DNA of 64,000 nt from Myxococcota bacterium. GTDB lineage: Bacteria; Myxococcota_A; UBA9160; PR03. The position numbers and the translations under genes are program-made. The stretch covers positions 40,570-104,569 of the forward strand of contig JBFIML010000008.1 in assembly GCA_041611735.1 (NCBI GenBank). The letters are read 5' to 3'. The notes beneath the pieces were generated by a model. The model worked only from the letters and a program-made list of their open reading frames with translations. It ran no database searches and was not told the DNA's origin. Numbering within the stretch: position 1 is the stretch's first letter; each line of letters opens with the position of its first letter. Of this stretch, positions 11,312 through 56,545 are shown piece by piece.

Positions 11312-11905
11312 ACGGCCTACCGCCGCAAGGACGCCCTCCACCAGCGCGCCAAGCGCGAGGGCTACCGGTCGCGAGCCGCCTACAAGCTGCTCGAACTCCA
11401 GCGCGCCCACGGGCTGCTACGCCCCGGCCAGCGGGTGGTGGACCTCGGCTGCTGGCCCGGGGGCTGGCTGCAGGTGGCGGCGCGGAGGGTGGGGCCGGCG
11501 GGGCGGGTGGTCGGGGTGGACGTGGCGGAGGTGGAGCCCCTCGAGGGGTTTGCGAACGTGTTCCTGATCCAGGCGGACCTCACCGAGCCAGCGGTGGTCG
11601 AGGGAATTCTCGAGCTCCTCGGGGGCCCTGCGGACGTGTTCCTGTGCGATGCCGCTCCCAAGCTGACGGGCGTGCGGGCCACCGACCGCGCCCGGGAGGA
11701 GGCGCTGCTGCAGGCGGTGGAGGCCCTGGTGCCGCGCCTGCTGCGGCCTCGGGGGGACCTCGTACTCAAGCTGCTGGACGCTCCGGAGGCCGAGGCGGTG
11801 GCGTCGCGGCTGCGGCCCCGCTTCGCCCACGCCCGCGTCACGCGCCTGGCCGCCACCCGTCGCGGAAGCAGCGAGCGGTATCTGATAGGCCGGGGACGTT
11901 CTTGA
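11312..11905 (+). CDS. rlmE: 23S rRNA Um2552 methyltransferase RlmE/FtsJ (non-canonical or mutated start)
   Basis: In-frame AYRRKDALHQRAKREGYRSRAAYKL lies upstream of ORF 11435; also DLGCWPGGW, CDAAP, VLK and SSERY. The codon at the expected Met position is ACG (11312). Confidence 0.85.
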   Translation, partial: TAYRRKDALHQRAKREGYRSRAAYKLLELQRAHGLLRPGQRVVDLGCWPGGWLQVAARRVGPAGRVVGVDVAEVEPLEGFANVFLIQADLTEPAVVEGILELLGGPADVFLCDAAPKLTGVRATDRAREEALLQAVEALVPRLLRPRGDLVLKLLDAPEAEAVASRLRPRFAHARVTRLAATRRGSSERYLIGRGRS

Positions 11906-11967
11906 CGAAGCGACTTTCTCCCTCGGCGACCCGGCCGGGAAGAAGCGGATCAGTCAAGAACCTCCCC
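11892..11967. repeat. Palindromic element copy 1
   Basis: GGGGACGTTCTTGAC ... GTCAAGAACCTCCCC inverted arms between convergent rlmE and rimO. Confidence 0.85.
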
Positions 11968-13317
11968 CTCCAGGTCGACGCCGCGGACGGCGGTGAGGCG
12001 GGCCCGGCGCAGGTCGCCCGGCCGCGCCGAGCCGCGCACCCGCACGTGCCCGTCGATCTCCGGCGCCTGGGAGGGAAGCCGGCCGCGAGCGATCCCGTTG
12101 CCGCCGGCATCGATCAGGAGCGTCTGCTCGCTTCCCACCAGGACCTCGAGCTTCTGGCGCAGGATCTCGCCCTGGACCGCCAGCAGCCGGCGATGACGCT
12201 CCCGGGCCACCCGGACCGGGACCTTGCCCGGGAGCTGGAAGGCCGCCGTCCCCTCCTCGTCCGAGTAGCGGAAGAAGCCGACGCGGTCGAAGCGCAGCTC
12301 GCGGACGAAGTCGAGCAGCTCCTCGAAGTCCGACGCCGTCTCGCCCGGAAAGCCCACGATGAAGGTGGTGCGGAGCGTGACGTCGGGAATGGCCGCGCGC
12401 AGCCGCTCCACCAGCCGCCGCTGGCGGTGCTGGGTGGTGCCCCGTCGCATGGCGCGTAGCACGCGGTCGCTCGCGTGCTGCAGGGGCACGTCCACGTAGG
12501 GAAGGACCCGCCGCGCTCCCGCCACGGCCTCGATCAGCTCGTCACCGACGGCGCTCGGGTATAGGTAGAGCAGGCGGATCCAGTCGAGGCCCTCCACGGC
12601 GTCGAGGGCCCGCACCAGGTCGACGAGCCTGGGGCGCGCCGTCCCGGTCGCCGGCAGGTCCTTGCCCCACGAGGTCGAATCCTGGGCCACCAGGTTGAGC
12701 TCCCGCACGCCGAGGGCGGCCAGCTGCCGGGCCTCCGCCAGGACCGACTCGAGCGTGCGGCTCTGGAAGCGCCCGCGGATGCCCGGGATCGCGCAGAAGG
12801 CGCAGATCCGGTCGCAGCCCTCGGCGATCTTCAGGTAGGCGCTGTGAGCGGGCCCGGTCAGGATGCGCGGGTCGTGCTCGTCGTAAAGGTGGGTCCGGCC
12901 GGCCTCCACGTACACGCCACGCCCCCGACCCGCCAGGGCGTCGTCCAGGATGCGCGGCAGGTTCGGGAACTCCCCGGTGCCGACGAAGGCGTCCACCTCC
13001 GGGAGCTCCCGGGCCAGCTCGGCGCCGTAGCGTTGGGGCAGACAGCCCGTCACCACCAGCGCCCGCAGGCTCCCGCGCTCGCGCAGCTCCGCCACCTCGA
13101 GGATGGCCTGGATCGATTCCTCGCGAGCCGCCGCGATGAACGAGCAGGTGTTGACCACGGCCACGTCGGCGTCCTCGAGGCGCTCCGCCAGGACGTAGCC
13201 GGCCACGGCCAGGCGCCCGAGCATGACCTCGGTGTCGAGCTGGTTCTTCGGGCAGCCGAGCGAGCGGAAGTGAACCCGCGCCCCGGCGGCGAGGGCCACG
13301 GCGGACGACGACGCCAT
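11950..13317 (-). CDS. rimO: Ribosomal protein S12 methylthiotransferase RimO
   Basis: SLGCPKN, VNTCSFI, VTGCL.QRY, radical-[11 protein letters not shown] and QAPEIDG (TRAM). Start uncertain. Confidence 0.95.
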
Positions 13318-13397
13318 GGCGACGCAGGGTAGCAGGGGGTCGCCGGGGCCCGGGGCCTCGCATACCCTCGCCACCCGCTCCACCGGGAGATGACGCC

Positions 13398-13892
13398 GTG
13401 TCCGAACGCCCGTTCCGTGTGCTCGGAGTGCAGCAGATCGCCGTCGGCGCCCGGGACAAGGCCGCCCTGCGCCGGCTGTGGATCGACCTGCTCGGCCTCA
13501 CGCCGGAGGGCTCGTTCCGGAGCGAGACGGAGAACGTGGACGAGGACATCGCCGTGGCGGGCGCCGGGGCCCTGCGCGTCGAGGTGGATCTGATGCAGCC
13601 CATCGACCCGGAGAAGCGACCGCGCGTACACGAGCCACCGCTCAACCACGTGGGGCTGTGGGTGGACGACCTGCCGGCGGCCGTCGCGTGGCTGGGGGAG
13701 CGGGGGGTCCGCTTCACCCCGGGCGGCATCCGCAAGGGCGCGGCGGGCCACCCGGTCTGCTTCATCCATCCCAAGGGGAGCGAGTCCGAGCCCGTGGGGG
13801 GCGAGGGGGTGCTGATCGAGCTGGTGCAGGCGCCCCCCGAGGTGATCGCCGCGGTCCGGGCGGCGTCCGGCCCGGGGCCCGCGAGGCCCTGA
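13398..13892 (+). CDS. VOC/glyoxalase family protein (methylmalonyl-CoA epimerase-like)
   Basis: [25 protein letters not shown] and GVLIELVQ. Confidence 0.8.
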
Positions 13893-13923
13893 ACGGCCTC
13901 GAATCGGAATGCTTTCCACTCCT

Positions 13924-13950
13924 GCGGGGCAGGGGCTTCCCCTGCCCCGC
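13924..13950 (+). terminator. GC hairpin downstream of the VOC gene
   Basis: Perfect 12-bp stem GCGGGGCAGGGG-CTT-CCCCTGCCCCGC; no U-tract. Confidence 0.45.
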
Positions 13951-14074
13951 GCGCCCGCGCTAGCATGGAAACCTGAAACCCTCGGGGCAGGTTTACGTCC
14001 AATCTGCAAAGCCGTGGAGTGCCCCGACCCTGGCTCCCCCCCCACACGGGGCCGGACTGGAGGAGACATCCGTG

Positions 14075-15385: not shown

Positions 15386-15406
15386 CCCCGACGGGCACGC
15401 GACACG

Positions 15407-15437
15407 CGGGGCCGGGACGCCAGGCGTCCCGGCCCCG
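15407..15437 (+). terminator. GC hairpin downstream of the DUF1329 gene
   Basis: 14-bp perfect stem CGGGGCCGGGACGC-CAG-GCGTCCCGGCCCCG, 21 nt after the stop. Confidence 0.5.
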
Positions 15438-15513
15438 TCTGCGTTCCGGGAGGGGTTGCGTCGGGCATCCGGGGCTGCTGTGCTCGGGGGTCCGAACCCG
15501 CCCAGGAGGGCGC

Positions 15514-16668: not shown

Positions 16669-16719
16669 GCGCTTCGATGGAGATCGCTGGCCCCGGCGCC
16701 CGGTCGCTATGCTCCGGAC

Positions 16720-17412: not shown

Positions 17413-17439
17413 CTCCCGCCCCGGCGGCGTGGACAACGA

Positions 17440-30354: not shown

Positions 30355-31542
30355 TCATCCGCGCGGAAGCTTCTCGAAGGGGAGCTCGCGATCCGGCCGC
30401 GCCTCCCGGGGCAGGCCGAGCACACGCTCCGCGATCACGTTCTTCTGGATCTCGTCGGTGCCTCCGGCGATGTGCAGCGCCGGAGCGAACAGCAGCTGGC
30501 GGGTCCAGGGTGGCCGGTCGAGCAGCGCTTCGGGGCCCAGCAGTCGCTGTCCCAGGTCGCCGGCCTGGGAGAGGATGCGGGCGATGGCGAGCTTCATCAC
30601 CGAGGACTCGGCGTCGGGGATGCGGCCTCGCCCGAGCTGGGTGACCACGCGCGCATTCAGGAGCTCGAGGGCCTTCACCCGCACGTAGAGATGTCCGAGC
30701 TCGTCGCGCAGGCCGGGGTCCAGGTGCTCGCGGCAGGCGCGCGCGTGGGCGGCGAGGGCTTCGAACGAGAACATGCGCTCGATCCCGCCGATCGCCATGC
30801 GTTCGTGCATCAGCGTCGTGAGCGCCACGGGCCAGCCGCCGTCCACCGGTCCGACCCGGTGCGCGTCCGGCACGCGCACCTCGTTCAGGAAGACCTCGTT
30901 GAAGTGGGCATCCCCGGTCATCTGGCGCAGGGGGCGCACCTCGACGCCCGGGGCACGCATGTCCAGCAGGAAGTAGGTGATGCCCTGGTGCTTGGGACGG
31001 GTGGGGTCGCTGCGCGCCAGCAGGATGCCCCAGTCCGCATAGTGGGCTCCCGACGACCAGGTCTTCTGGCCCGTCACGAGCCACGCGTCGCCGTCGCGAA
31101 CCGCCCGCGTCGCGATGGCCGCCAGGTCGGAGCCGGCTCCGGGCTCGCTGAAGAGCTGGCACCACAGCTCGTCGCCGCGCAGCATCGGTGGCAGGAAGCG
31201 CTGCTTCTGCTCCGCGTCGCCGTGGGCGATCAGGGTGGGGCCGGCCATCCCGATCCCCACCACGAAGATCGATTCGCCGAGGCCCGCCCGGCCGAGCTCC
31301 TGGTTCCAGACGATCTGCTCCACCGGGCCGAGGCCGCGGCCGCCGTACTCGCTCGGCCACAGCAGCGCCGCCCAGCCATGCTGGTGGAGCGTGCGCTGCC
31401 AGGCGCGGGAGACGGCCAGCAGCTCCGCGTCGTCCACCTGCTCCAGGGTATAGTCGGGCCAGTGCGCCGGGGCCCGGGCGTCGAGGAAGGCGCGTGCCTG
31501 GGCCCGGAAGGCGGCTTCGGCCGGCGAGTCGCGGAAGTCCAT
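30355..31542 (-). CDS. Acyl-CoA dehydrogenase
   Basis: WCQLFSEPGAGSDLA, GQKTWSS and IAGGTDEIQKNVIAERVLGLPRE. Confidence 0.93.
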   Translation of the reverse strand: MDFRDSPAEAAFRAQARAFLDARAPAHWPDYTLEQVDDAELLAVSRAWQRTLHQHGWAALLWPSEYGGRGLGPVEQIVWNQELGRAGLGESIFVVGIGMAGPTLIAHGDAEQKQRFLPPMLRGDELWCQLFSEPGAGSDLAAIATRAVRDGDAWLVTGQKTWSSGAHYADWGILLARSDPTRPKHQGITYFLLDMRAPGVEVRPLRQMTGDAHFNEVFLNEVRVPDAHRVGPVDGGWPVALTTLMHERMAIGGIERMFSFEALAAHARACREHLDPGLRDELGHLYVRVKALELLNARVVTQLGRGRIPDAESSVMKLAIARILSQAGDLGQRLLGPEALLDRPPWTRQLLFAPALHIAGGTDEIQKNVIAERVLGLPREARPDRELPFEKLPRG

Positions 31543-31574
31543 GGCTGCCTCCCGTTGAGCCCTCGGGCCAGAAA

Positions 31575-31588
31575 TGATACACGTTTCA
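31575..31588. promoter_or_regulatory. Degenerate KstR-type operator
   Basis: TGATACACGTTTCA has one mismatch to TnnAACnnGTTnnA and lies in the AT-rich gap between divergent ACAD genes. Confidence 0.55.
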
Positions 31589-31639
31589 AAAACGAGGCCG
31601 CCCGCGGCGCCGGGCGGCGGCTCGATGCGGAGCCGCGGC

Positions 31640-32815
31640 ATGTATCTGGACCTCACTCCCGAGCAGCAGGCCCTGCGCGACCAGCTGCGCGCCTACTTCG
31701 CCACGCTCATGACTCCGGACCTCGAGGAGGAGATCCGGGGCAGCGAGGGAGGCGGACCGCTCTACCGAGAGGTCTTGCGCCGCATGGGCGAGGATGGCTG
31801 GCTCGGCATCGGGTGGCCCAAGGAGTACGGCGGGCAGGGGCGCTCACACATCGAGCAGCTCATCTTCGCCGACGAGGTGCAGCGGGCCGGCTTCCCCCTC
31901 CCCTTCCTGACCCTGCATACCGTCGGTCCGACGCTCATGCAGTTCGGGACGGAGGCGCAGCGGCGCGAGCTGCTGCCCCGCATCCTGCGCGGCCAGTGCC
32001 ATTTCGCCATCGGCTACTCGGAGCCCGGAGCGGGCACCGACCTGGCGTCGCTCCAGACCCGGGCCGTACGCGACGGCGACGAGTACGTGGTCAACGGCCA
32101 GAAGGTCTTCACGAGCCTCGCGGACTTCGCCGACTACATCTGGCTGGCAGTTCGCACCGATCCCCGGGCGCCCAAGCACCGTGGCATCTCGATCCTCATG
32201 GTGGACACCCAGCTCCCCGGCTTCAAGCTGACCCCGACCTGGACCATGGGCGACGTGCGCACCAACACCACCTGGTACGAGGACGTGCGGGTGCCGGTGC
32301 GCATGCTGGTGGGGCGCGAGAACGAGGGCTGGGGCCTGATCGTGAACCAGCTCAACTACGAGCGCATCTCGCTCACGCCCTACGGTCCGCTGGCGCGGCT
32401 GCTGGAGGAGACGCGCGCCTGGGCGCACAAGACCGAGCTCGCGGGAGGAGAGCGGGTCATCGACCGGCCCTGGGTGCGCGAGCGGCTGGCGCGTGTCCAC
32501 GCGGGACTCGAAGCGCTCAAGCTCATGCACTGGAAGCAGGCCTGGGCCATGACGCGCGGGATGCTCCAGGCGGCGGACGCGTCGGCCCTCAAGGTGTACG
32601 CCAGCGAGTTCTACGTGGAGGCCTATCGCCATCTGATGGAAGTCTTCGGGCCCGGCGCGGCGCTCCAGCGCGGGTCGGCCGGAGCGGTGCTGCGCGGGCG
32701 GCTCGAGCGCATGTACCGGGCCACCTTGATCCTCACCTTCGGGGGCGGCACCAACGAGGTGCAGCGCGACATCATCGCCATGGCCGGCCTCGGCCTGCCA
32801 AGGGGACGTTCTTGA
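31640..32815 (+). CDS. Acyl-CoA dehydrogenase, FadE26/ChsE4-like
   Basis: YFATLMTP, GYSEPGAGTDLA and FGGGTNEVQRDII. Confidence 0.88.
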   Translation: MYLDLTPEQQALRDQLRAYFATLMTPDLEEEIRGSEGGGPLYREVLRRMGEDGWLGIGWPKEYGGQGRSHIEQLIFADEVQRAGFPLPFLTLHTVGPTLMQFGTEAQRRELLPRILRGQCHFAIGYSEPGAGTDLASLQTRAVRDGDEYVVNGQKVFTSLADFADYIWLAVRTDPRAPKHRGISILMVDTQLPGFKLTPTWTMGDVRTNTTWYEDVRVPVRMLVGRENEGWGLIVNQLNYERISLTPYGPLARLLEETRAWAHKTELAGGERVIDRPWVRERLARVHAGLEALKLMHWKQAWAMTRGMLQAADASALKVYASEFYVEAYRHLMEVFGPGAALQRGSAGAVLRGRLERMYRATLILTFGGGTNEVQRDIIAMAGLGLPRGRS

Positions 32816-32890
32816 CGAATTGACTTCTTCCGGCGGCGTGCCATCGGGCCCGGCGGCTTGTAAAGCAGTCAATGAGTCAGGAACTTCCCC
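32802..32890. repeat. Palindromic element copy 2
   Basis: GGGGACGTTCTTGACGAATTGACT ... AGTCAATGAGTCAGGAACTTCCCC. Confidence 0.85.
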
Positions 32891-32901
32891 GGAGCGAGAG
32901 C

Positions 32902-34041
32902 ATGGACTTCGGTTTCACCGAGGAGCAGCAGGCGCTTCGCGAGCTGGCGCGCAAGATCCTTGCGGATCGCGTCACGCCGGATCGTTTGCGGGAGATCGAG
33001 CGAAGCGACGAGGGCATCGACCGCGAGCTGTGGGCCGAGCTGGCCAAGGCGAACCTGCTCGGGAGCTGCCTGCCCGAGTCGGTGGACGGGAGCGGGCTCG
33101 GCTTCTTCGAGCTGTGTCTCCTGCTCCAGGAAGCGGGCCGGACGGTCGCGCCGCTCCCCCTGTGGGCGACGCTCGTCCTCGGCGCCCTGCCGCTCGCCGA
33201 GTTCGGGAGCGCCGCCCAGCGCGAGCGCTGGCTCCCGGCGGTGGTTCGCGGCGAGGCCTTCCTCACCGCAGCGCTCTTCGAGCCGGACTCCCTGGACCCG
33301 ACCCGCCCCACGACCCGCGCCGAACGTGTCGACGGCGGCTGGCGCCTCTCGGGCGAGAAGCTGTGTGTTCCAGCCGCGCCGGTCGCGGCCCGGGTACTCG
33401 TTCCGGCCCGCTTCGCCTCGGGCGGCGTCGGGATGTTCCTGCTCGACCCACATGCCGATGGCGTCGCGCTCGAGCGCCAGATCGCCACGAATCACGAGGT
33501 GCTGGGACGCCTGGTGCTCAGCCGCGCGTCGGTCGCCGACGCGGACCGGCTCGGCGGCGAACAGGAGGGCCAGGCCGCAATCCGCTGGCTGGCGGACCGG
33601 GCGGTGGTGGCTCTCTGCGCCCTCCAGCTCGGGGTGGTCGAGCGCGCCCTCGAGATCACGGCCCGCTACGTGGCCGAGCGCCGCCAGTTCGACCGCCCCA
33701 TCGGCAGCTTCCAGGCCGTGCACCAACGCGCCGGGGATGCCTACATCGACGTGGAGCTGATCCGCCTCACCACCTGGCAGGCGGCCTGGCGTCTGGACCA
33801 GGGCATGCCGTCGACGGGAGAGATCGCCGTGGCCAAGTTCTTCGCTTCGGAGGCCGGCCATCGGATCGTGTACGCAGCCCAGCATCTCCACGGCGGGATT
33901 GGCGTCGACGTGGACTACCCGATCCACCGCTACTACCTGTGGGCGCGCGAGATCGAGCTGACGCTCGGCTCCGGAGCCCGCCAGCTCGAGCGGCTCGGGG
34001 AGGAGCTGGCGCGCAGCCCCGCGACGGCCGCGATCGGGTAG
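32902..34041 (+). CDS. Acyl-CoA dehydrogenase, FadE27/ChsE5-like partner subunit
   Basis: [14 protein letters not shown] and QHLHGGIGVDVDYPIHRY; tandem with the previous ACAD. Confidence 0.88.
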   Translation: MDFGFTEEQQALRELARKILADRVTPDRLREIERSDEGIDRELWAELAKANLLGSCLPESVDGSGLGFFELCLLLQEAGRTVAPLPLWATLVLGALPLAEFGSAAQRERWLPAVVRGEAFLTAALFEPDSLDPTRPTTRAERVDGGWRLSGEKLCVPAAPVAARVLVPARFASGGVGMFLLDPHADGVALERQIATNHEVLGRLVLSRASVADADRLGGEQEGQAAIRWLADRAVVALCALQLGVVERALEITARYVAERRQFDRPIGSFQAVHQRAGDAYIDVELIRLTTWQAAWRLDQGMPSTGEIAVAKFFASEAGHRIVYAAQHLHGGIGVDVDYPIHRYYLWAREIELTLGSGARQLERLGEELARSPATAAIG

Positions 34042-34170
34042 TCGGCAAGCGGAGCGCGCAGCGAGGCGCAGCCGAGCGAAGTTCATCGGCAAGCGAAGCG
34101 CGCAGCGAGGCGCAGCCGAGCGAAGTTCATCGGCAAGCGAAGCGCGCAGCGAGGCGCAGCCGAGCGAAGT
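34042..34170. repeat. 44-bp tandem repeat, about 3 copies
   Basis: TCGGCAAGCG(G/A)AGCGCGCAGCGAGGCGCAGCCGAGCGAAGTTCA at 34042, 34086 and 34130 (last copy truncated). Confidence 0.95.
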
Positions 34171-34647
34171 CTATCCAAGCGGTGGCACGAAGAGGGTGAT
34201 CGTCTCGTACACCACCGCAGGGCGATCGTTCCCCACCACGTGGATGTGGTTCTCGAACACGATCTGCGTGCCCTTCGGCTTCTTCTCCACGGCCTTCAAG
34301 CGCCCGCGCATGTGGATCTTGCTCCCGGCCAGGACCGGCCCCGTGAAGCGCAGCTTGTCGGAGCCGTAGTTCACCACGTTCCCGAAGCCAGTCAGGGCAA
34401 AGGTCGGCTTGGGGGTCAGGCTCGGCAGCAGCGACAGGGTGAGGAAGCCGTGGGCCACGGGCCCCCCGAATGGGCTCTGCTTCCTGGCGCGTTCCACGTC
34501 CACGTGGATCCACTGGTGATCCCCGGTCAGATCCGCGAACTGCTCGATCATCTCCTGGGTCACCGTCATCTCGGGTCCCCAGGGTCCGAACTCCTCGCTC
34601 ACCTGCTTGCGGATGCTCTCGACGTCATCGAAGCGGATCGGGTCCAT
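34171..34647 (-). CDS. MaoC family dehydratase
   Basis: FADLTGDHQWIHVD, AHGFLTLSL and NYGSDKLRF; ATG follows GGAGGAG. Confidence 0.9.
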   Translation of the reverse strand: MDPIRFDDVESIRKQVSEEFGPWGPEMTVTQEMIEQFADLTGDHQWIHVDVERARKQSPFGGPVAHGFLTLSLLPSLTPKPTFALTGFGNVVNYGSDKLRFTGPVLAGSKIHMRGRLKAVEKKPKGTQIVFENHIHVVGNDRPAVVYETITLFVPPLG

Positions 34648-34670
34648 GCCACACTCCTCCTGGCCGACAG

Positions 34671-35582
34671 TCATTGGGGCGGGACGGTGAAGCCGTCCTT
34701 CACCGGCTCGAGCTTCTCGAAGTGGGGACCGAGCTGATCGTCGAGGGCCTCCACGGTCCAGCGCTCGGCACTCTCGAAGCGGGTGTGGAGGGTGGGTCTC
34801 CCCACCACGGTCACGTTGCGTCCCCAGACCACGAAGACCTGGCCCGAGATGCGATCCGCCTTCGGAGAGGCCAGATAGACCACGAGTGGCGTCACGTTCT
34901 CGGGCGCGAAGTGGTCGAAGCCCTGCTCGGGCTTCTGGAAGATCGCTGCCACCGGGCCCGCCAGGGTCATGCGCGTGCGGGCCCGGGGCATCACCACGTT
35001 GGCGGTGACCCCGTACTTCTGGCACAGCTGGGCCGCGCCCATGGTGAGGGCGACGATTCCCGCCTTGGCGGCGGCGTAGTTGGGCTGGCCGGGGTTTCCG
35101 AACAGGAAGGCTTCGGAGGAGGTGCTGATCAGACGGCCGTAGAGGGGACCCCCTCGGGCCTTGGACTGCTCGCGCCACCAGGCGGTGGCGTGCCGCATGG
35201 TGCAGAAGTGACCTTTCAGGTGGACGCGCACCACCGCGTCGAAATCCTCCTCGCTCATGTTGAAGAGGGTGGCGTCACGCAGGAAGCCGGCGTTGTTGAC
35301 GAGGATGTCGAGGTCGCCGAACTCGGAGAGGGCGGTCTCGATCAGGCGCTTGGCATCGTTCCAATCGGCGACGTCGCCGAAGTGCGGGACCGCCTCGCCG
35401 CCCGCGGCGCGGATCTCGTCCACCACCGCGCGAGCCGCGCTCTCGTCGCGCCCGGTGCCGTCGGCCCGGGTGCCGAGATCGTTCACCACCAGCCGCGCCC
35501 CGTGCCGAGCCAGGTCGAGGGCCTCGAGCCGGCCGAGCCCATGGGCTGCTCCGGTGACGATCGCAACCTTGCCGTCGAGCAT
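34671..35582 (-). CDS. SDR oxidoreductase (hydroxyacyl-CoA/hydroxysteroid dehydrogenase-like)
   Basis: TGAAHGLG, NNAG and NYAAAK. Confidence 0.9.
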   Translation of the reverse strand: MLDGKVAIVTGAAHGLGRLEALDLARHGARLVVNDLGTRADGTGRDESAARAVVDEIRAAGGEAVPHFGDVADWNDAKRLIETALSEFGDLDILVNNAGFLRDATLFNMSEEDFDAVVRVHLKGHFCTMRHATAWWREQSKARGGPLYGRLISTSSEAFLFGNPGQPNYAAAKAGIVALTMGAAQLCQKYGVTANVVMPRARTRMTLAGPVAAIFQKPEQGFDHFAPENVTPLVVYLASPKADRISGQVFVVWGRNVTVVGRPTLHTRFESAERWTVEALDDQLGPHFEKLEPVKDGFTVPPQ

Positions 35583-35592
35583 GCCGTCTCCC

Positions 35593-39592
<4,000 letters not shown>

Positions 39593-39595
39593 CGA

Positions 39596-40567
39596 CTAGC
39601 CCGCCGGCCGGAAGACGGGGAGCTTCAGCTCCTCGTCCACGTTCTCGATGCTCGCCTGGAGCCGCATGCCAATCGCCACCTTCTCGGGATCGCAGCCCAC
39701 GACGTTGGCCACCATCCGCGTGCCTTCCTCGAGCTCGATGAGCCCCACCACCAGGGGATACTCGTAGCCCGGAAAGCGAGGGTGATGGAGGACCGTGTAG
39801 CTGTGGAGCGTACCCCGCCCCCGGGCGGGCACCGCGCCCCACTCGAGGGACTGGCATTTCCCGCACATGGGGCGCGGCGGATGGCGCAGCGTGCCGCAGG
39901 CGCTACAGCGCTGGATCAGCAGCTCGCCCCGGTCGATTCCCTCCCACCACCAGGCGTTGTCGTGGCCCCGGGGCGCACGCATGCGGCGGGGCTGGCTGGC
40001 TGTGGCTGGCTGCGGGGAGGCCTGCGGCTCCTGGGCGGGCTTGAACTTCAGCACGCGGAAGGTCATCCAGCCGACCTCTTGCCCCTGCTGGTCTCGGAAG
40101 ACCGTCCGCGTGTCGATGAAATATCCGATTCCAAGGGCGGTCGCCTTCTGCTCGGAGATGGACTCGATCGTGGTGGTGGCGGTCACGCGGTCACCGGGTC
40201 GCAGGTAGCGCCGGTACTCCTGCTCGCAGTCCGTGGCCACGACCGAGGGGTAGCCGTGCGCGCTGAGCAACTGGTGCAGCTCCTGCTGCTTGTCGCGGGG
40301 ACCGTCGCCCACCTGCGCCATCTCGACTCCGCCCAGGATCCAGGCCTGCAGCATGGTGGGCGGCGCCACGAGCCCATGGTGCACGGAAGCGACCGCCGCC
40401 TGCGGGTCCGTGTACACCGGGTTGCGGTCGCCGAGGGCCTCGCACCAGTGGCGGATCATGGCCTCGTTCACGGGGACCGGGCCTACGCCGGGCGGACCGG
40501 TCTCGATGCCCACGTAGGCCCGCAACCGCTTCTCGAAGGCCTGCTGGTCGCGCTTCTGCAGACTCAC
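39596..40567 (-). CDS. MaoC + DUF35 hydratase subunit, ChsH2-like
   Basis: PVNEAMIRHW, APPTMLQAW, VVATDCEQ and a C-terminal CSAC..CGKC OB-fold. GTG 40567 is best placed relative to GGAG; 40573 is an alternative. Confidence 0.9.
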   Translation of the reverse strand: MSLQKRDQQAFEKRLRAYVGIETGPPGVGPVPVNEAMIRHWCEALGDRNPVYTDPQAAVASVHHGLVAPPTMLQAWILGGVEMAQVGDGPRDKQQELHQLLSAHGYPSVVATDCEQEYRRYLRPGDRVTATTTIESISEQKATALGIGYFIDTRTVFRDQQGQEVGWMTFRVLKFKPAQEPQASPQPATASQPRRMRAPRGHDNAWWWEGIDRGELLIQRCSACGTLRHPPRPMCGKCQSLEWGAVPARGRGTLHSYTVLHHPRFPGYEYPLVVGLIELEEGTRMVANVVGCDPEKVAIGMRLQASIENVDEELKLPVFRPAG

Positions 40568-40576
40568 GTTCACTCC

Positions 40577-40664
40577 GGGGACGTTCTTGGCCGATCGACT
40601 CTTGCCGAGAACGTCAAGCTTGCCGATGCGATCGGGGAAAAGTCAATCAGTCAAGAACGTCCCC
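40577..40664. repeat. Palindromic element copy 4
   Basis: GGGGACGTTCTTGGCCGATCGACT ... AGTCAATCAGTCAAGAACGTCCCC. Confidence 0.85.
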
Positions 40665-41838
40665 GGCCTCGGGGCAGGCGCAGGCCAGCCCCGGCGATGA
40701 TGTCGCGCTGCACCTCGTTCACGCCTCCCCCGAAGGTCAGGGTCACGGCGGCCCGGTAGGCCTGTTCCAGGAGACCCCCGAAAAGCGCGCCGGGCTGCCC
40801 CGCGCGGATCCGGCCCGCCGGACCCACGACCTCCAGGAGCAGCCGGTAGCACTCCACGAAGAACTCGGTCCCCATCACCTTGACCGCCGACGCCTCCGCC
40901 ATCTCGGGCTCGCCCGCCGCCACCGACCAGGCCGAGTGCCAGTTCAGCAGCTTGAGTGCCTCGAGCCGGGCATGGACGCGCGCGAGATCGAGCTGGACCC
41001 AGGGCTGGTCCAGCATCCGGCCGCCGTCGGGCGCTGGCGTGTGCGCGGCCCAGGCCCAGACCTCGTCGAGCAGCCGGTCTGCCAGGCCCGGGCACGCGAG
41101 GGTGATGCGCTCGTGGTTGAGCTGCTCGGTGATCAGGCTCCAGCCGCCGTGCTCGGGCCCGACCCGGTTCGTCACCGGGATCCGGACGTTCTCGTACCAG
41201 GTGGAGTTGGTGCGCTCGCCGCCCAACGTGTGGATGGGCGTCACCGAGAAACCCGGACAGTCCGTCGGCACCAGCAGGATCGAGATGCCCTTGTGGCGGG
41301 GAGCCTCGGGATCGGTGCGGGCGGCCAGCCAGATGTAGTCGGCGTCGTGGGCGTGGGTCGTGTAGAGCTTCTGGCCGTTGATCACGTACTCGTCGCCGTC
41401 ACGGACCGCCCGCGTCTGGAGCGACGCCAGGTCGGTGCCGGCCGCCGGCTCCGTGTAGCCCACGCCGAAGAAGAGCTCGCCGCGCAGGATGCGGGGCAGC
41501 AGCTGGCGCTTCTGGGCTTCGCTCCCGTGACGGATCAGGGTGGGTCCGATCGTGTTGACGGAGATCACCGGGAGCGGCGCCCGGGCCCGGTAGGTCTCGT
41601 CCCAGAAGATGAACTGCTCGATTGCGGAGCGGCCCCGTCCGCCGTACTCCCGCGGCCAGCCGAGCCCGAGCCAGCCGTCGCGGCCCATGCGGCCCACGAC
41701 CTGGCGGAAGACGGGTCCGCCCATCTCCTCGAACTCCGCATCCAGAGCGCGTCGCAGCTCGGGAGTGAAGAGCTCCCGGTAGTAGCTGCGGATCTCCTTG
41801 CGGAGGGCCTGCTGCTCGGGGGTGAAGTCGAGGTACAT
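40651..41838 (-). CDS. Acyl-CoA dehydrogenase, FadE29/ChsE2-like
   Basis: GYTEP.AGTDLASL, TTHAHDADYIWLA, QLNHER and FGGGVNEVQR. Confidence 0.88.
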   Translation of the reverse strand: MYLDFTPEQQALRKEIRSYYRELFTPELRRALDAEFEEMGGPVFRQVVGRMGRDGWLGLGWPREYGGRGRSAIEQFIFWDETYRARAPLPVISVNTIGPTLIRHGSEAQKRQLLPRILRGELFFGVGYTEPAAGTDLASLQTRAVRDGDEYVINGQKLYTTHAHDADYIWLAARTDPEAPRHKGISILLVPTDCPGFSVTPIHTLGGERTNSTWYENVRIPVTNRVGPEHGGWSLITEQLNHERITLACPGLADRLLDEVWAWAAHTPAPDGGRMLDQPWVQLDLARVHARLEALKLLNWHSAWSVAAGEPEMAEASAVKVMGTEFFVECYRLLLEVVGPAGRIRAGQPGALFGGLLEQAYRAAVTLTFGGGVNEVQRDIIAGAGLRLPRGRGRS

Positions 41839-41890
41839 GGTGCTCCGCTGCGATCGGGCGCGGCACGGCCCTGGCGGATGTGCTCCCGCC

Positions 41891-42691
41891 CTAGCGTCCC
41901 TTGAAGGCCGGCTTGCGCTTCTGCGCGAAGGCGCGCGGCCCTTCCCGGGCATCCTCGCTGGCGAAGACGGGCAGGCCGATCTGGAGCTCGGTCTTCAACG
42001 CCTCGCTCTCGGGAACCCCCTCCGTCTCCCGCAGCGCGCGCAGCACGGCCTGCACGGCCAGGGGTCCGTTCTCGGCGATCTGCCCGGCAATCTCCCGCGC
42101 GCGGTCCAAGGCCTGGCCGTCCGGGACCACGTGACCGATCAATCCGATCCCGAGCGCCTCGCGCGCGGAGAGGTGACGACCCGTCAGGAGCATCTCTGCA
42201 GCGTGCGTGTAGGAAATCTGGCGGCGCAGCCGCACCGTGGAGCCGCCCAACGGGAAGAGCCCCCAACGCACCTCCGAGACGCCGAAGCGGGCGCTCTCGC
42301 CCGCGACGCGGACGTCCGTGGCCTGCAGGATCTCCGTGCCGCCGGCCACCGCCGGGCCCTCCACGGCTGCCACCAGCGGCTTCCGGGGCCGCTGCTGGCG
42401 CAGGAGCGCCTTCCACTGCAGGTCCGGATCCTCGACGAAGCGGCGCTTCCACGGGTCGTCGCCCGCGTGCCCCCCGGCGAGCGCCTTCAGGTCCGCCCCG
42501 GCGCAGAAGCAGCCTCCGGCCCCGGTCAGGATCGCCGCCCGCACGTCCGGGTCGGCGTCGATCGCCTGCCAGGCGTCGGCCATGCGAGCCAGCATCTCGG
42601 GACTGAACGCATTGCGGGCCTCGGGCCGGTTCAGGGTCACGACCACCACCTGGCCCTCGCGCTCCATGAGCACGTGCGGGGACTCGGCCAT
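41891..42691 (-). CDS. Enoyl-CoA hydratase/crotonase, EchA19-like
   Basis: FCAGADLK, AGGTEILQATD.RVAGESARFGVSE and GGSTVRL.RQI. Confidence 0.9.
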   Translation of the reverse strand: MAESPHVLMEREGQVVVVTLNRPEARNAFSPEMLARMADAWQAIDADPDVRAAILTGAGGCFCAGADLKALAGGHAGDDPWKRRFVEDPDLQWKALLRQQRPRKPLVAAVEGPAVAGGTEILQATDVRVAGESARFGVSEVRWGLFPLGGSTVRLRRQISYTHAAEMLLTGRHLSAREALGIGLIGHVVPDGQALDRAREIAGQIAENGPLAVQAVLRALRETEGVPESEALKTELQIGLPVFASEDAREGPRAFAQKRKPAFKGR

Positions 42692-46531: not shown

Positions 46532-46532
46532 C

Positions 46533-52930: not shown

Positions 52931-52995
52931 GCGGCGATGCTAGCGGTTGCGGCCCCGACCCCCCGATGCGGGACGACGGCCCTGCCGGCGGGCGG

Positions 52996-53124
52996 CTAGC
53001 GGTAGGACTTGCGCCCGCCGCGGCTCTGGCGCAGGCGGGCGCGGGCGAGCTTGGCCTTGAGCCGCGCCCGGTAGCGGGCGGTCTTGCGCCGGTTGCGATG
53101 GGGGAGCGGCTTGGCCTTCTTCAT
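52996..53124 (-). CDS. Small, extremely basic protein (42 aa)
   Basis: GGAGG RBS, then MKKAKPLPHRNRRKTARYRARLKAKLARARLRQSRGGRKSYR; fills an otherwise empty gap. Confidence 0.65.
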   Translation of the reverse strand: MKKAKPLPHRNRRKTARYRARLKAKLARARLRQSRGGRKSYR

Positions 53125-53225
53125 GGCGCCTCCGAGGCCGACCACGGTAGGCAAGCCGGCGGGCGCGGTCCAGCGCGGGCCGGACGTGACCCGGCGCGGG
53201 CCCCGGCGTACCCTAGGCCCGCAGC

Positions 53226-54407: not shown

Positions 54408-54413
54408 GGGACC

Positions 54414-54971
54414 GTGGAGAGCGACGCCGCCCGCCGCGAGCTGCTCGAGCTGATCCTGCGCGTTTCCTTCCGGCGCGAGCGGGTCGTGCTCGCCAGCGGC
54501 CGCGAGAGCGACTTCTATCTGGACCTGCGCCAGACCTTGATGCGGCCCCGGGGGCTACGCCTGGCCGGGCGCCTGGTGCTGGAGCGCCTGGCTTCCGGCC
54601 CCCGGGTGGACGCCGTGGGGGGCATGGCCGTGGGGGCGGTGCCCCTGGTGGCGGCGGTGCTGGCCGCCGCGGCGGAGCGGGAGCCACAGACGGGCCTGCT
54701 GGGCTTCTTCGTCCGCAGGGAGGCCAAGCCACACGGGCTCCGGCGCCGCCTGGAGGGAGCCTTCGCGCCCGGCCAGAGCGTGGCCCTGCTGGAGGACGTG
54801 GTGACCACCGGCGCCTCCACCCTGGAGGCGGCCGCGGCGGTGGAGGCCGAGGGCGGCAAGGTGACGCGGGTAGTGGGCCTGGTGGACCGGGGCGAGGGCG
54901 CCGAGCAGGCCTTCGCGGCCCGGGGACTGTGCCTGGAGACGCTCTTCAGCCGCGCCGACCTGCCCGTCTGA
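54414..54971 (+). CDS. pyrE: Orotate phosphoribosyltransferase
   Basis: LASGRESDFYLD, VRREAKPHG and LLEDVVTTGAS. Confidence 0.92.
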   Translation: MESDAARRELLELILRVSFRRERVVLASGRESDFYLDLRQTLMRPRGLRLAGRLVLERLASGPRVDAVGGMAVGAVPLVAAVLAAAAEREPQTGLLGFFVRREAKPHGLRRRLEGAFAPGQSVALLEDVVTTGASTLEAAAAVEAEGGKVTRVVGLVDRGEGAEQAFAARGLCLETLFSRADLPV

Positions 54972-55024
54972 CTGAGCCGACGACGAGGCGTGCGGGGTAC
55001 TCCCGCGCAGCAAGGAGAAGCGAG

Positions 55025-56530
55025 ATGAGCCTGAACCTGGCCTCCATCCTGATGGCTGCAGCCCGCGACCACGCCGACCGGCCGGCCGTGCGCTGGAACG
55101 AGCTGGTCCTCACCCATGCGAAGCTCGACCGCGCCGCGCGCGGCGTCGCCACCGCCCTGCGCGACCGCGGCCTCCAGCCCGGCGACCGGGTGGCGCTGCT
55201 GGTGCCGAACGTGCCCGAGTTCCCGATCGCCTACTTCGGGGCCCTGTACGCGGGCTGCAGCGTGGTGCCCATCAACGTGCTGGCCTCGGGTCCGGAGGTG
55301 GACTACTTCCTGCGCGACTCCGAAGCGCGGCTGCTGGTGGCCCATCCGTTCTTCGAGAAGCCCGCCCGCGCCGGGGCCGAGAAGGCCGGCGTCCCGCTGG
55401 TCTGGTCGAGCGGCGATGCCGCGCCTCCCGAGAGCTTCGCGGCCATGCAGCGCGAGGCGCCGATCGACGCGCTGCACCCGACGGGCGCCGACGACACCGC
55501 GGTCATCATCTACACCTCGGGCACCACGGGGAAGCCCAAGGGAGCGGAGCTCACCCACTCGAACCTGCTGATCAACTGCGCCATCGTGCTGCCGAAGCTG
55601 CTGCCCCTGGGCCCCGACGACGTGGCCCTCGCGACCCTGCCGCTCTTCCACTCCTTCGGGATGACGTGCATCCAGAACGCCTGCATCGCGCTCGGTGCGT
55701 GCTTCACCCTGCTGCCGCGCTTCACGCCCGAGGAGGCCCTGGCCATCATGCAGCGGGACCAGGTCACCCTGTTCGCCGGGGTGCCGACCATGTACTTCGC
55801 GATCCTGCATCACCCGGAGGCCGACCGCTACGACGCCTCGAGCCTGCGCTTCTGCATCACCGGCGGCGCGGCCATGCCGGTGGAGGTGCTGAAGGCCTTC
55901 GAGGAGAAGTACCGGGTGCCCGTGCTCGAGGGATACGGCCTGTCCGAGACCTCGCCGGTGGCGAGCTTCAACCTGGCGGACCGGCCCCGCCAGGCGGGCA
56001 CCATCGGCTGGCCGGTATGGGGCGTGGAGCTGAGCATCCTGGACGACCAGGACCGCCCGCTGCCCGACGGAGAGCCGGGGGAGATCGCCATCCGCGGGCA
56101 CAACGTGATGAAGGGCTACTGGAAACGGCCCGACGCCAGCAAGGAGGCCCTGCGCAACGGCTGGTTCCACAGCGGCGACGTGGGCGTGCGCGACCGGGAG
56201 GGCCGCTACCGGATCGTGGACCGCAAGAAGGACATGATCCTGCGCGGCGGCTTCAACGTGTATCCGCGCGAGGTGGAAGAGGTGCTGTACGCGCACCCGG
56301 ACGTGGTGGAGGCGGCGGTGGTGGGGGTGCCCCACCAGAGCCACGGCGAGGAGGTGAAGGCGATCCTGGTGACGCGGCCCGGCAGGACGCTCACCGACGA
56401 GGAGGTGATCGAGTACTGCAAGGCGAACCTGGCCGCCTACAAGTACCCGCGCATCGTCGAGTTCCGCGACACCCTGCCCAAGGGCCCCACCGGGAAGATC
56501 CTGAAACGCGAGCTGCGGGAACGTTCTTGA
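55025..56530 (+). CDS. Long-chain fatty acid-CoA ligase
   Basis: YTSGTTGKPKG, GYGLSETSP, SGDVG and GPTGKILKR; RBS AAGGAG. Confidence 0.93.
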   Translation: MSLNLASILMAAARDHADRPAVRWNELVLTHAKLDRAARGVATALRDRGLQPGDRVALLVPNVPEFPIAYFGALYAGCSVVPINVLASGPEVDYFLRDSEARLLVAHPFFEKPARAGAEKAGVPLVWSSGDAAPPESFAAMQREAPIDALHPTGADDTAVIIYTSGTTGKPKGAELTHSNLLINCAIVLPKLLPLGPDDVALATLPLFHSFGMTCIQNACIALGACFTLLPRFTPEEALAIMQRDQVTLFAGVPTMYFAILHHPEADRYDASSLRFCITGGAAMPVEVLKAFEEKYRVPVLEGYGLSETSPVASFNLADRPRQAGTIGWPVWGVELSILDDQDRPLPDGEPGEIAIRGHNVMKGYWKRPDASKEALRNGWFHSGDVGVRDREGRYRIVDRKKDMILRGGFNVYPREVEEVLYAHPDVVEAAVVGVPHQSHGEEVKAILVTRPGRTLTDEEVIEYCKANLAAYKYPRIVEFRDTLPKGPTGKILKRELRERS

Positions 56531-56545
56531 CTAATTGACTTCTCC
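56517..56545. repeat. Palindromic element, single arm (copy 5)
   Basis: GGGAACGTTCTTGACTAATTGACTTCTCC at the junction of two convergent genes. Confidence 0.8.

Follow-up and report, generated by a model that had tools for sequence, protein, structure and literature searches.

Seven unrelated genes in a 64,000-nt stretch of the genome of an uncultured marine myxobacterium (the window) end within copies of one dispersed palindromic sequence, which raises the question of what kind of repeat this is and how it came to supply the stop codons of its neighbours. A sequence-only reading of the window had described a REP/MITE-like palindromic family lying on the last codons of genes, and this core description holds.

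The arm pattern GGGGACGTTCTTGAC, allowing up to 3 mismatches, matches the 64-kb window 10 times, against 1.89 matches expected and a maximum of 6 in 100 shuffles. Nine of these are true arms (11892+, 11967-, 32802+, 32890-, 36784+, 36874-, 40577+, 40664- and 56517+), and inspection of the sequence confirmed that the nine arms, four hairpin doublets and one lone arm lie where they had been placed; the tenth match (340-354, 3 mismatches) looks like chance. The four doublets are predicted to form mRNA hairpins (z -4.0 to -7.3; Table 1), and the lone arm at 56517 gives no hairpin on folding (z +0.64). Rfam covariance models at gathering thresholds found no match in the whole window. The first doublet is the entire gap between the convergent rlmE-like and rimO genes; at 32802..32890 the ribosome-binding site of the downstream gene (GGAG, with the ATG at 32902) directly follows the right arm, and at 36784..36874 the ribosome-binding site GGAGGAGG of the next minus-strand gene adjoins the left arm. 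All seven stop codons attributed to the element (7/7) fall within arm sequence. Among the genes concerned, RimO and the lipid-transfer protein score above NCBIfam cut-offs and RlmE, the two dehydrogenases and the ligase below them, while the 223-aa ORF, earlier called a thioesterase, has no NCBIfam match at 1e-5.

Table 1. Repeat elements of the window and the stop codons that lie inside their arms (tails are the last residues before the stop)
Feature	Position	Strand	Details
TIR doublet, 76 bp	11892..11967		arms ~11892-11921 and 11938-11967; -41.1 kcal/mol, z -4.56
TGA, rlmE-like gene	11903-11905	+	arm coordinate 12-14; tail ...YLIGRGRS
TGA, rimO	11950-11952	-	right-arm coordinate 16-18; tail ...DLEGEVLD
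TIR doublet, 89 bp	32802..32890		between two same-strand acyl-CoA dehydrogenase genes; -46.7 kcal/mol, z -5.42
TGA, FadE26-like acyl-CoA dehydrogenase	32813-32815	+	tail ...GLGLPRGRS
TIR doublet, 91 bp	36784..36874		between lipid-transfer/thiolase-like gene and next minus-strand gene; -45.2 kcal/mol, z -4.03
TGA, Ltp2-like (lipid-transfer/thiolase-like) gene	36861-36863	-	tail ...SGMILGRC
TIR doublet, 88 bp	40577..40664		between ChsE2-like acyl-CoA dehydrogenase and next minus-strand gene; -48.8 kcal/mol, z -7.27
TGA, ChsE2-like (second) acyl-CoA dehydrogenase	40651-40653	-	tail ...LPRGRGRS
Single TIR, partnerless	56517..56545	+	overlapped from both sides by convergent genes, zero gap between genes
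TGA, acyl-CoA ligase	56528-56530	+	arm coordinate 12-14; tail ...KRELRERS
TAG (CTA on the + strand, within GACTAATTGAC), 223-aa ORF	56531-56533	-	tail ...EVN

The family extends through the genome from which the window comes (G000; assembly 95% complete, 118 contigs), where about 50 hairpin repeats lie in gaps between genes. A profile search with nhmmer gives 98 arms on many contigs, forming 40 inverted doublets and 18 singles, and a 24-nt arm pattern occurs 59 times, its reversed control 0 times. The doublets have a mean MFE of -47.8 kcal/mol (n=39). The 98 arms are about 78% identical and their conservation is position-specific, with positions 1-11, 13-15, 18-19, 21 and 23-24 at least 87% conserved, so that conservation lies in the outermost 15 nt and not, as in REPs, elsewhere. 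The consensus arm carries TGA in three frames (T-TGA-C-TGA-T-TGA-C); within their first 30 nt, three frames are closed in 13 of the 98 arms, two in 37, one in 44 and none in 4.

The expected enrichment at stop codons was borne out by the genome scan: with gene ends taken from a purpose-made simple codon-bias gene caller, a stop lies within the arm or at most 7 nt before it for 59 of 98 arms (60%), against 343 of 20000 random genome positions, and of 2280 random non-coding positions 72 are preceded by a stop at a distance of at most 10 nt. The inbound stop is inside the arm in 48 of 98 (at coordinate 14 in 18, 18 in 20, 22 in 9 and 24 in 1), 0-7 nt upstream in 11, and further upstream in none. 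A gene start within 30 nt is faced by 27 arms. This genome is compact, convergent genes being separated by a median of 9.5 nt and tandem genes by 25 nt. Its commonest C-terminal tripeptide is GRS (20 of 3526 predicted proteins). As far as predicted reading frames show, the copies take up the whole intergenic space, and neighbouring frames enter the arm and stop at a TGA of its TTGAC repeats.

In genes that run into arms, the last 2-7 residues are, on the predicted translations, encoded by the element, and the proposal that C-termini are recoded in this way agrees with element-free orthologues, which carry other C-terminal residues. Orthologues of the FadE26-like protein end in ...GLGLPHYK followed by S, T, D, E or N (for example ...LPHYKS, compared with ...LPRGRS here), while one relative (G010) has ...SGMILGQL for the Ltp2-like protein, compared with ...SGMILGRC, and ...LPRSRR for the ChsE2-like protein, compared with ...LPRGRGRS. 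In 8 of 9 genes with orthologues the tail differs in sequence and its length stays within 2 residues of that of the closest relatives; in FadE26 and Ltp2 the sequence past the element shows no displaced ancestral tail. Edge deletions are seen directly when the rimO/rlmE junctions of G014 and G015, members of one genus, are compared: the G014 copy is shorter at both outer edges, by 11 nt and 8 nt, and its RimO stop has shifted from the outer-repeat TGA to the core TGA (...WGRS).

How the copies move is suggested by two elements (C3:142648 and C3:143082), which have the same arms and spacer and are 85% identical over an aligned 170 nt including flanks; their invariant columns are concentrated from GGGG to CCCC and their flanks are unrelated. 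Since arms and spacer are shared with such sharp borders, the doublet can be copied as a unit with the ends GGGG...CCCC. The target duplications looked for around the copies are absent: the 12 nt on either side of the 40 doublets contain no direct repeats, and base composition is biased only immediately in front of the arm (C in 58 of 98). Empty-site alleles were not encountered, so that the insertion event itself is unobserved. The C3 pair is the sole clearly related spacer pair among 741 compared, while the arms remain about 78% identical and conserved by position, a contrast for which a simple recent burst of unit copies is an inadequate account.

The source of the arm is indicated by other genomes. 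In a low-GC 'Deltaproteobacteria' MAG (L145), GGGGACGTTCTTGACTTATTGACTTA at 1408(+) and its inverted copy at 2469(-) bracket a 330-aa ORF (1462-2454) that matches Y1_Tnp and has its own stop within the right TIR, the repeat shared with the window's genome being 24-26 nt; at another metagenome locus (L151) the arms bracket a transposase ORF in the same manner. Within the window's own order, inverted repeats bearing a core of 13-15 nt stand on both sides of 6 of the 13 Y1_Tnp loci examined in relatives (L125, L127, L130, L133, L135 and L137), and the core does not flank the remaining 7. Core-flanked ORFs reach 45.4 and 29.9 bits with Pfam Y1_Tnp (cut-off 23), and 76.4 and 53.6 bits, under the cut-off of 80, with the NCBIfam model 'REP-associated tyrosine transposase'; HTH_23 in a flanked transposase stays at 21 bits, under its cut-off. 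Inspection by eye of the translations, including that of L145, shows HUH-like (NHVHLV) and YVHLNP motifs, and homologues bear the JGI name 'REP element-mobilizing transposase RayT', some of them with PF08299 Bac_DnaA_C. Every gene enclosed by these TIRs codes for a Y1/HUH transposase. Judged by these matches, the flanked transposases combine a Y1_Tnp signature with a C-terminal HTH/DnaA_C-like extension, both features of subclass 2.1, and the arm corresponds to the TIR of such transposase units elsewhere. The expectation that a RAYT-like transposase would lie between the same arms was thus upheld in other genomes and failed in the window's own assembly, in which a Pfam PF01797 search gave 0 matches for a Y1 transposase and tblastn with two TIRYT proteins as queries reached at best E 0.045, in ordinary genes.

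It is likely, then, that the elements are non-autonomous repeats built from two inverted ~28-nt TIRs of a RAYT-like Y1 (HUH) tyrosine-transposase unit, and with two inverted TIR copies per element the doublets are REPIN-like. The family that the sequence-only reading did not recognise resolves as the TIR-repeat/TIRYT class of Di Nocera et al. 2013, who, in the relevant passages, named RAYT-like genes between long TIRs 'TIRtrons' and their enzymes 'TIRYTs' (PMC3733652). Most TIRYTs are described there and by Quentin et al. 2018 (PMC6006769) as TnpA_Y1 subclass 2.1 with an HTH/DnaA_C tail, and TIR repeats as moderately abundant families of singles, dimers and clusters. The present units resemble the TIRtrons of these passages in the long inverted repeats, starting with GGGG, that enclose a RAYT-like Y1/HUH gene of ~300-330 aa whose product ends in an HTH/DnaA_C-like tail, in a TIR that may overlap the end of the transposase ORF, and in repeats that occur without the gene in some genomes and the reverse (PMC3733652); the repeats themselves are likewise dispersed intergenic singles and dimers, here 18 and 40. 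The arm start GGGGACGT agrees at 6 of 8 positions with GGGGWSAS, a motif that the passages give for only some of the published TIRs (PMC3733652), and the arm sequence is absent from 4 text supplements of that paper. Differences are the host, an order of uncultured Myxococcota that the passages of PMC3733652 and PMC6006769 do not mention, the presence of ~58 loci with zero TIRYT in the assembly, and the 60% of arms that overlap or touch a stop codon, a feature unreported for TIR repeats in the same passages.

Likeness to the REP/REPIN-RAYT systems, as far as they are described in passages of Nunvar 2010 (PMC2817692), Bertels and Rainey 2011 (PMC3116915) and Bertels 2017 (PMC5581495), is found in inverted doublets that form one long hairpin around a less conserved spacer, in a single-copy Y1 transposase flanked by repeats, in sequence families specific to a species or lineage and in the absence of target duplication. 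As in REPINs, two inverted units form a long hairpin (-47.8 kcal/mol on average) that is copied whole, as in the C3 pair. In one relative (G052) each half is a REP-like stem-loop, GTGAGACA / TGTCTCAC around the core, whereas a single arm in the window's genome is not palindromic, having direct TTGAC repeats and no self-complementarity. Classical REPs are imperfect palindromes of 20-40 nt with an unpaired GTAG/CGTC tag at one end; here there is no one-end tag, and GACG/CGTC lies within the long stem on both arms. The donation of stop codons is also not new as such, since passages of PMC3733652 already report GTAG/CGTC REPs in contact with the ends of both convergent genes, whose stops they supply, with the same preference for convergent and unidirectional junctions. 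In the present family, however, the stop is a TGA of the TTGAC repeats that lies 12-22 nt into the arm; the element thus encodes 4-7 codons and not the stop alone, and up to three frames are closed. Stops in all frames are described for the bacterial MITEs RUP, the 155-bp Correia element and CIR in passages of Delihas 2008 (PMC2229807), where these are said to stay outside ORFs, while the elements studied here end them.

The copies may have been spread by a TIRYT since lost from, or unassembled in, this genome. In so compact a genome, small deletions at the edges of an element would have taken away the original stops and spacers, and it is proposed that the one to three frames closed by the arm made such deletions tolerable. 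Once transcribed, an element would give an RNA hairpin of -40 to -60 kcal/mol, which may act in a REP-like manner in protecting mRNA 3' ends or punctuating operons. The idea that the TTGAC of the arms serves as a -35-like promoter element fared less well, no sigma-70-like site having been found between 31000 and 42000, including on the three elements there; the same interval has two terminator-like sites (G+C-rich stem with T-run), neither at the elements, which have no T-tract.

The strongest competitor, itself unlikely, holds that transposition explains only the origin of the doublets and that host selection keeps them as 'stop plus hairpin' cassettes at gene ends; on this reading the terminating ribosome would sit on the 5' arm and melt it, and the hairpin would tune how translation ends, how ribosomes are rescued, how the mRNA decays or how the next gene is translated. 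Liang, Rudd and Deutscher are said to have found in 2015 that E. coli REPs at most 15 nt from a stop codon lower expression through ribosome stalling. Such selection is consistent with arms conserved at individual positions beside spacers without similarity and no transposase in the assembly, but transposase recognition or subfamily structure would be expected to produce the same position-specific conservation just as well. Against such selection, arms are only slightly more complementary within elements than between them (22.78 against 21.93 of 28, a value reached in 12 of 10000 permutations), and the spacers show no more structure than chance would give (mean z -0.78). Placement speaks for a gene-end role in several respects, namely that no stop-associated copy is more than 7 nt from the inbound stop, that doublets favour convergent junctions (14 of 38 typed doublets, compared with 520 of 3409 junctions genome-wide), that arms facing gene ends retain more TGAs than those facing gene starts (1.73 compared with 1.29) and that downstream ribosome-binding sites adjoin the 3' arm; yet most arms close only one or two frames, and 7 doublets separate divergent gene starts, where a stop would serve no purpose.

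It is very improbable that the family consists of classical MITEs, that is, deletion derivatives of an insertion sequence with a DDE transposase, which would transpose by cut-and-paste and duplicate the target site. Their size of 70-120 bp, their terminal inverted repeats of 28-30 nt and their non-coding, dispersed nature would suit such an origin, but the doublets lack flanking direct repeats and have only the pre-arm C bias, and the genes between these TIRs are not of the DDE type but Y1/HUH transposases. By comparison, RUP, Correia and CIR are associated with DDE-type insertion sequences and with target duplications. The least probable reading, operator sites of a pathway regulator or intrinsic terminators, draws on inverted repeats with TTGAC and on three of the four window doublets lying among lipid/steroid-type catabolic genes, but copies stand beside unrelated genes on many contigs, at 3' ends and within operons and not in promoters, and the arm sequence serves as a transposase TIR in other phyla.

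The TIR-derived repeats are thus a genuine new family of an already known type of repeat. Membership of the known TIR-repeat/TIRYT class takes away most of the novelty, as the sequence-only reading had itself anticipated for a match to a catalogued repeat. A wider meaning would follow if, throughout an order of Myxococcota, the host maintained TIR doublets as 'gene-end cassettes', which is doubtful. Host maintenance would then explain arms that are conserved by position without a transposase while the spacers have fully decayed. With a TGA in up to three frames and a strong hairpin, the cassette would let compact genomes delete their own stops and intergenic DNA, and would buffer frameshifting indels at 3' ends. 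It would also place the ribosome on a hairpin, so that termination, rescue, mRNA decay or translation of the next gene could be tuned at about 50 loci.

The repeat family seen in the window is genuine and statistically overwhelming. With up to three mismatches, the 15-mer GGGGACGTTCTTGAC matches the window 10 times, compared with 1.89 expected and a maximum of 6 over 100 shuffles, and nine of the 10 matches are the arms listed in the sequence-only reading, which had proposed a REP/MITE-like family supplying the stops of seven genes; the five stretches it described agree in sequence, all seven stop codons are located in arm sequence, and its interpretation of the family is judged correct. In a window-wide ranking of inverted repeats, 40575-40666 comes first and 11892-11967 second, and the four doublets of the window (two inverted arms around a spacer) fold as RNA at -41.1 to -48.8 kcal/mol (z -4.0 to -7.3), the lone arm at 56517 giving no hairpin. 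An Rfam search of the window returned no matches, and the idea of -35-like sequence in the arms did not hold up, with no promoter-like sites found in 31000-42000. As for the gene names given in that reading, NCBIfam places RimO and the lipid-transfer/thiolase-like protein above cut-off and the RlmE-like protein, two acyl-CoA dehydrogenases and the acyl-CoA ligase below it, and the 'thioesterase', that reading's label for a 223-aa ORF on the minus strand, has no NCBIfam match. At 56528-56533 the acyl-CoA ligase gene (plus strand) meets this ORF with zero gap (TGA abutting CTA), inside a single arm.

A genome scan of the kind suggested there was run on G000, the assembly holding the window (4.09 Mb, 72.3% G+C, 118 contigs, 95% complete), using an arm profile built on 61 seed arms with matches accepted to E 3. 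It found 98 arms, arranged as 40 inverted pairs and 18 singles, with pairs mostly 70-123 bp long and extremes of one 32-bp minimal palindrome and one 165-bp pair. The arm consensus is GGGGACGTTCTTGACTGATTGACTTCTC; identity between copies is about 78%, conservation is 87% or higher at positions 1-11, 13-15, 18-19, 21 and 23-24, and positions 12, 16, 17, 20, 25, 26 and 28 are variable. Because the T of each TGA (TYGAC) is among the variable positions, just 13 of the 98 arms close all three frames, while 37 close two, 44 one and 4 none; on the outbound strand, 70 arms have no stop at all. The two arms of an element are complementary at 22.78 of 28 positions, versus 21.93 of 28 between elements, which was matched in 12 of 10000 permutations. 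Spacers are unrelated (clear similarity in only 1 of 741 pairs) and show no excess of structure over chance on folding; the MFE averaged over 39 doublets is -47.8 kcal/mol. An origin of the spacers as displaced host DNA was rejected, since they lack similarity to ancestral tails or gaps. Three sites in G000 (C9:52582-52613, C44:6170-6199 and C33:24559) are minimal palindromes of 29-32 nt with the arm's outer 13-15 nt alone, e.g. GGGGACGCTCTTGACCAGTCAAGAGCGTCCCC, and the one on C9 contains the stops of both convergent genes. The longest member, the 165-bp doublet at C3:129369-129533, lies between two divergent gene starts and has a structured spacer of 115 nt (-93.7 kcal/mol).

The placement of arms relative to genes (see table) was judged from our own simple codon-bias caller (3526 genes, 88.7% coding), which limits the gene-end figures. 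Among the 48 stops inside arms, the final base of the stop occupies arm coordinate 14 in 18 cases, 18 in 20, 22 in 9 and 24 in 1; the stops predicted by the same calls across the genome are TGA in 2276 genes, TAG in 1189 and TAA in 61. Random genome positions had an inbound stop at -10 to +30 nt in 343 of 20000 cases, and random non-coding positions had a stop within 10 nt upstream in 72 of 2280. Tandem junctions hold 17 doublets (2388 such junctions in the genome), convergent ones 14 (520) and divergent ones 7 (501); 2 doublets are at contig ends. In all 14 convergent doublets each gene stops in its arm or at most 7 nt ahead of it, and in tandem doublets the RBS of the next gene directly follows the far arm, e.g. 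CCCC followed by GGAGCGAGAGC ATG at 32890; the element therefore constitutes the entire intergenic region. By the same gene calls, gaps in G000 have medians of 9.5 nt for convergent pairs (30% of which overlap or abut, gap 0 or less), 25 nt for tandem and 151 nt for divergent ones.

Arm positions relative to predicted genes, C-terminal tails of arm-ended genes, and Y1_Tnp loci of G015, G140 and G052 (asterisk, stop codon)
Feature	Other genomes	G000	Length difference of G000 tail
Stop of inbound gene within arm		48/98 arms	
Inbound stop 0-7 nt upstream of arm		11/98 arms	
Inbound gene stopping further off		0/98 arms	
Arm within 30 nt of gene start		27/98 arms	
Gene start 31-100 nt from arm		8/98 arms	
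Gene start more than 100 nt from arm		2/98 arms	
Arm at contig end		2/98 arms	
FadE26-like tail	...GLGLPHYK[STDEN]*, then short spacer with GGAG-like RBS, next start	...GLGLPRGRS*	0 vs 9/11 rows
Ltp2-like tail	...SGMILGQL*	...SGMILGRC*	0
RlmE-like tail	...YLIARDF[RL]* or ...YLLGRGLV*	...YLIGRGRS*	0 vs 4/14 rows
RimO tail	...DLEAERVD* and variants	...DLEGEVLD*	0 vs 8/19 rows, +1/+2 vs 6
ChsE2-like tail	...LPRSRR*	...LPRGRGRS*	+2
Y1_Tnp locus, bracketed	L125, L127, L130, L133, L135, L137		
Y1_Tnp locus, not bracketed	L124, L126, L128, L129, L131, L132, L136		

Of the 3526 predicted proteins, 20 end in GRS, which makes it the most frequent C-terminal tripeptide, and the remaining two arm frames encode ...GDVLD and ...GTF(L/S)T. 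The recoding of C-termini claimed from sequence is borne out by orthologues from relatives of other genera (about 70-80% protein identity), whose tails differ from those of G000 in all five genes tabulated. In 8 of the 9 genes with an orthologue (59 genes are arm-ended), the G000 tail is within 2 residues of the length found in the closest relatives. An ancestral tail and stop beyond the element were sought for FadE26 and Ltp2 and not found, so the present state is not a bare insertion. A stricter possibility would be overwriting in register, with the arm TGA always replacing the ancestral stop in place. The length differences (see table) come from too few genes to tell such a process from insertion slightly ahead of the stop and later deletion of what remained, and ancestral and arm sequences (stops excluded) resemble each other no more than by chance in a hand count. 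Five relatives queried with 20 kb of DNA gave few usable orthologous gene ends, owing to poor synteny. In one relative (L032, G028) the FadE26-like orthologue ends in ...MPRGR* (CCG CGG GGG CGA TAG) and not in ...PHYK.*, and the element is absent; this ending may have arisen by chance or mark where an element was lost.

The rimO/rlmE junction reads ...TGA-N5-TCA... in G001, G010 and G012, and in G014 and G015, which belong to one genus, it carries a related 48-nt element. The copies of these two genomes differ by 11 nt and 8 nt missing, one at each outer edge, and the edge loss in G014 shifts the RimO stop from an outer TGA to a core TGA, giving ...WGRS*. Given this edge loss and the general compactness of the genome, we infer that the overlap of genes with arms may reflect dispensable DNA trimmed away at element edges, which would be tolerable thanks to the arm's own TGAs. 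In genus g6 (L013/L077, G005:C35) this convergent junction is filled by a different, near-perfect palindrome (CGCCGTCAAGAAAGGGGCCGGGTTGGATTCGTCAACTTTTCCC...), about 85 nt long, which has only GTCAAGAA and TTGAC-like pieces in common with the G000 arm, so that the junction holds three different hairpin elements in three genera. Three relatives from two genera (L035 in G006, L041 in G015, L042 in G012) have another repeat, ...CCGTTTCCCGCGTAGCGAGCCGCAGGCGAGCGGCGAGG..., 3' of the FadE26-like gene and ahead of its neighbour, with two copies in G015; small repeats of unrelated kinds seem to gather at this junction as at a hot spot.

Evidence of movement comes from two doublets on contig C3 of G000, at 142648 and 143082, which are 434 bp apart and have arms and spacer in common, their similarity ending just beyond (C)GGGG...CCCC(G). 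The shared spacer between unrelated flanks means that the whole doublet was copied as a unit at least once, with ends (C)GGGG...CCCC(G) and without target duplication. Target duplications, another check proposed from sequence, were seen at none of the G000 doublets, and the sole biased flank position is the one immediately preceding the arm (C in 58 of 98). Contigs of four runs over 31000-42000 yielded no empty-site allele, and no joint in them skips an element; this says little, because contigs drop rare variants. In records of a second study (X5) the three doublets of 31000-42000 are unchanged (0-1 differences), and a further contig (X7), with about 10% differing letters, spans 32729-33725 at about equal length.

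The 24-nt G000 pattern has no match in the 40 relatives searched. A looser core, GGGGACGTTCYYGRC (up to one mismatch), shows patchy expansion across the order, with 85 matches in G000, 101 in G015, 69 in G014, 46 in G005, 43 in G022, 158 in G052, 79 in G140 and 66 in G089, 5-20 in most other genomes, and mostly 0-10 per strand for the reversed-core control. Core flanks vary by lineage: the unit is gTGAGACAA-core-TGTCTCAC...GTGAGACA-core'-TTGTCTCAc in G052, where either half is a REP-like stem-loop, and TTGACTT-core...core'-AAGTCAA in G014/G015. At six of 16 arms examined in G052, a long coding ORF terminates within the core (...ETRGRS*), and at five more a stop lies at most 9 nt before it; overlap with stops is thus shared by the wider family. 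A search for the exact G000-type arm GGGGACGTTCTTGACTTATTGACTTA gave one match in each of four lower-G+C MAGs (Desulfurivibrionaceae, Omnitrophota, Thermodesulfobacteriota and 'Deltaproteobacteria'), and scans of metagenomes (five loci) and genome contigs (four loci) returned distant lower-G+C carriers only, with no close relative.

These repeats are associated with a transposase. Inverted core-bearing repeats lie on both sides of Y1_Tnp (PF01797) genes at 6 of 13 loci in G015, G140 and G052. In the 'Deltaproteobacteria' MAG (L145), GGGGACGTTCTTGACTTATTGACTTA forms both ends of a unit (1408+ and 2469-) whose sole ORF is a 330-aa Y1 transposase with its stop inside the right TIR, or terminal inverted repeat, and this TIR-transposase-TIR arrangement recurs on a metagenome contig. 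A transposase flanked by the same arms, anticipated from the window sequence, is therefore present in other genomes (L145 and the metagenome contig) and absent from the G000 assembly, where PF01797 gives no match; a candidate on contig C3 (tblastn best E 0.045) was rejected, as the match falls in ordinary genes. The bracketed proteins pass the cut-off of Pfam Y1_Tnp and fall short of that of the NCBIfam 'REP-associated tyrosine transposase', those of G015 and G140 being 47% identical, and their family comprises at least 914 clusters under the JGI name 'REP element-mobilizing transposase RayT', often with Bac_DnaA_C. A PDB sequence search with the L145 transposase returned no matches. On another metagenome contig (L154, about 50% G+C), 1366-2089 is a decayed transposase unit of this kind. 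Its outer TIR pair surrounds 23 aa left over from the N-terminus of the transposase, together with an 89-bp doublet that has inserted there; 500 nt away is a second doublet whose spacer is similar. In an Omnitrophota MAG (L148, G152), direct copies of a variant end, GGGGACGTTTCT(A/G)TTTT..., occur alongside a Y1_Tnp gene (1400, 2143 and 2551), which suggests more sequence families built on a shared GGGGACGTT start.

The G000 family fits the catalogued TIRYT-type TIR repeats. Di Nocera et al. (2013; PMC3733652) use the name 'TIRtrons' for RAYT-like genes that have long TIRs on both sides, and 'TIRYT' for the enzymes. In their account GGGGWSAS is common to some TIRs, and TIR families are of moderate abundance, occurring singly, as dimers or in clusters; REPs at convergent junctions are mostly no more than 20 bp away from both ORF ends, GTAG REP termini often provide a TAG stop, and a genome that keeps the repeats can lack REPtrons. 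Quentin et al. (2018; PMC6006769) assign 20 of 26 TIRYTs to subclass 2.1 of TnpA_Y1, with HTH/DnaA_C-like tails, and give the TIR consensus as GGGG[AT][CG]A[CG]; MITEs with stops in all frames are described by Delihas (2008; PMC2229807). The arm sequence is not in the text supplements of PMC3733652, a comparison made without that paper's Figure 9; arm 10-mers retrieved only unrelated topics among the matches listed. A separate literature search gave no REP/RAYT description for Myxococcota among its listed matches, and the name TIRYT appears in three records, which come from two works. Three features stand out: how extensively stops and C-termini have been captured, the family's orphan state in G000 and a transposase end conserved across phyla.

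By analogy with REPs, a role of the hairpins, none of which has a T-run, as mRNA 3' stabilisers or operon punctuation is plausible. As the stop lies 12-22 nt into the 5' arm, a ribosome that terminates there would have to melt the predicted stem, and such melting could link termination with mRNA decay or with translation of the gene that follows. Expression was reportedly lower where a REP lies within 15 nt of the stop, according to Liang, Rudd and Deutscher in 2015.

A selfish transposon-end repeat is able to rewrite the C-termini of many housekeeping and catabolic enzymes, 48 genes of a 4.1-Mb genome ending in an arm, and recognition of the family keeps annotation and comparative work from reading such tails, or 'missing' intergenic regions, as features of the genes. 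TIRYT-type repeats are now extended to an order of uncultured Myxococcota, and a single 26-nt transposase end is conserved over hosts of 33% to 72% G+C, making it a good substrate for testing DNA recognition by a barely studied branch of Y1 transposases. If the placement of hairpins on stop codons does regulate expression, the family would offer a natural, repeated test case for termination-coupled control.
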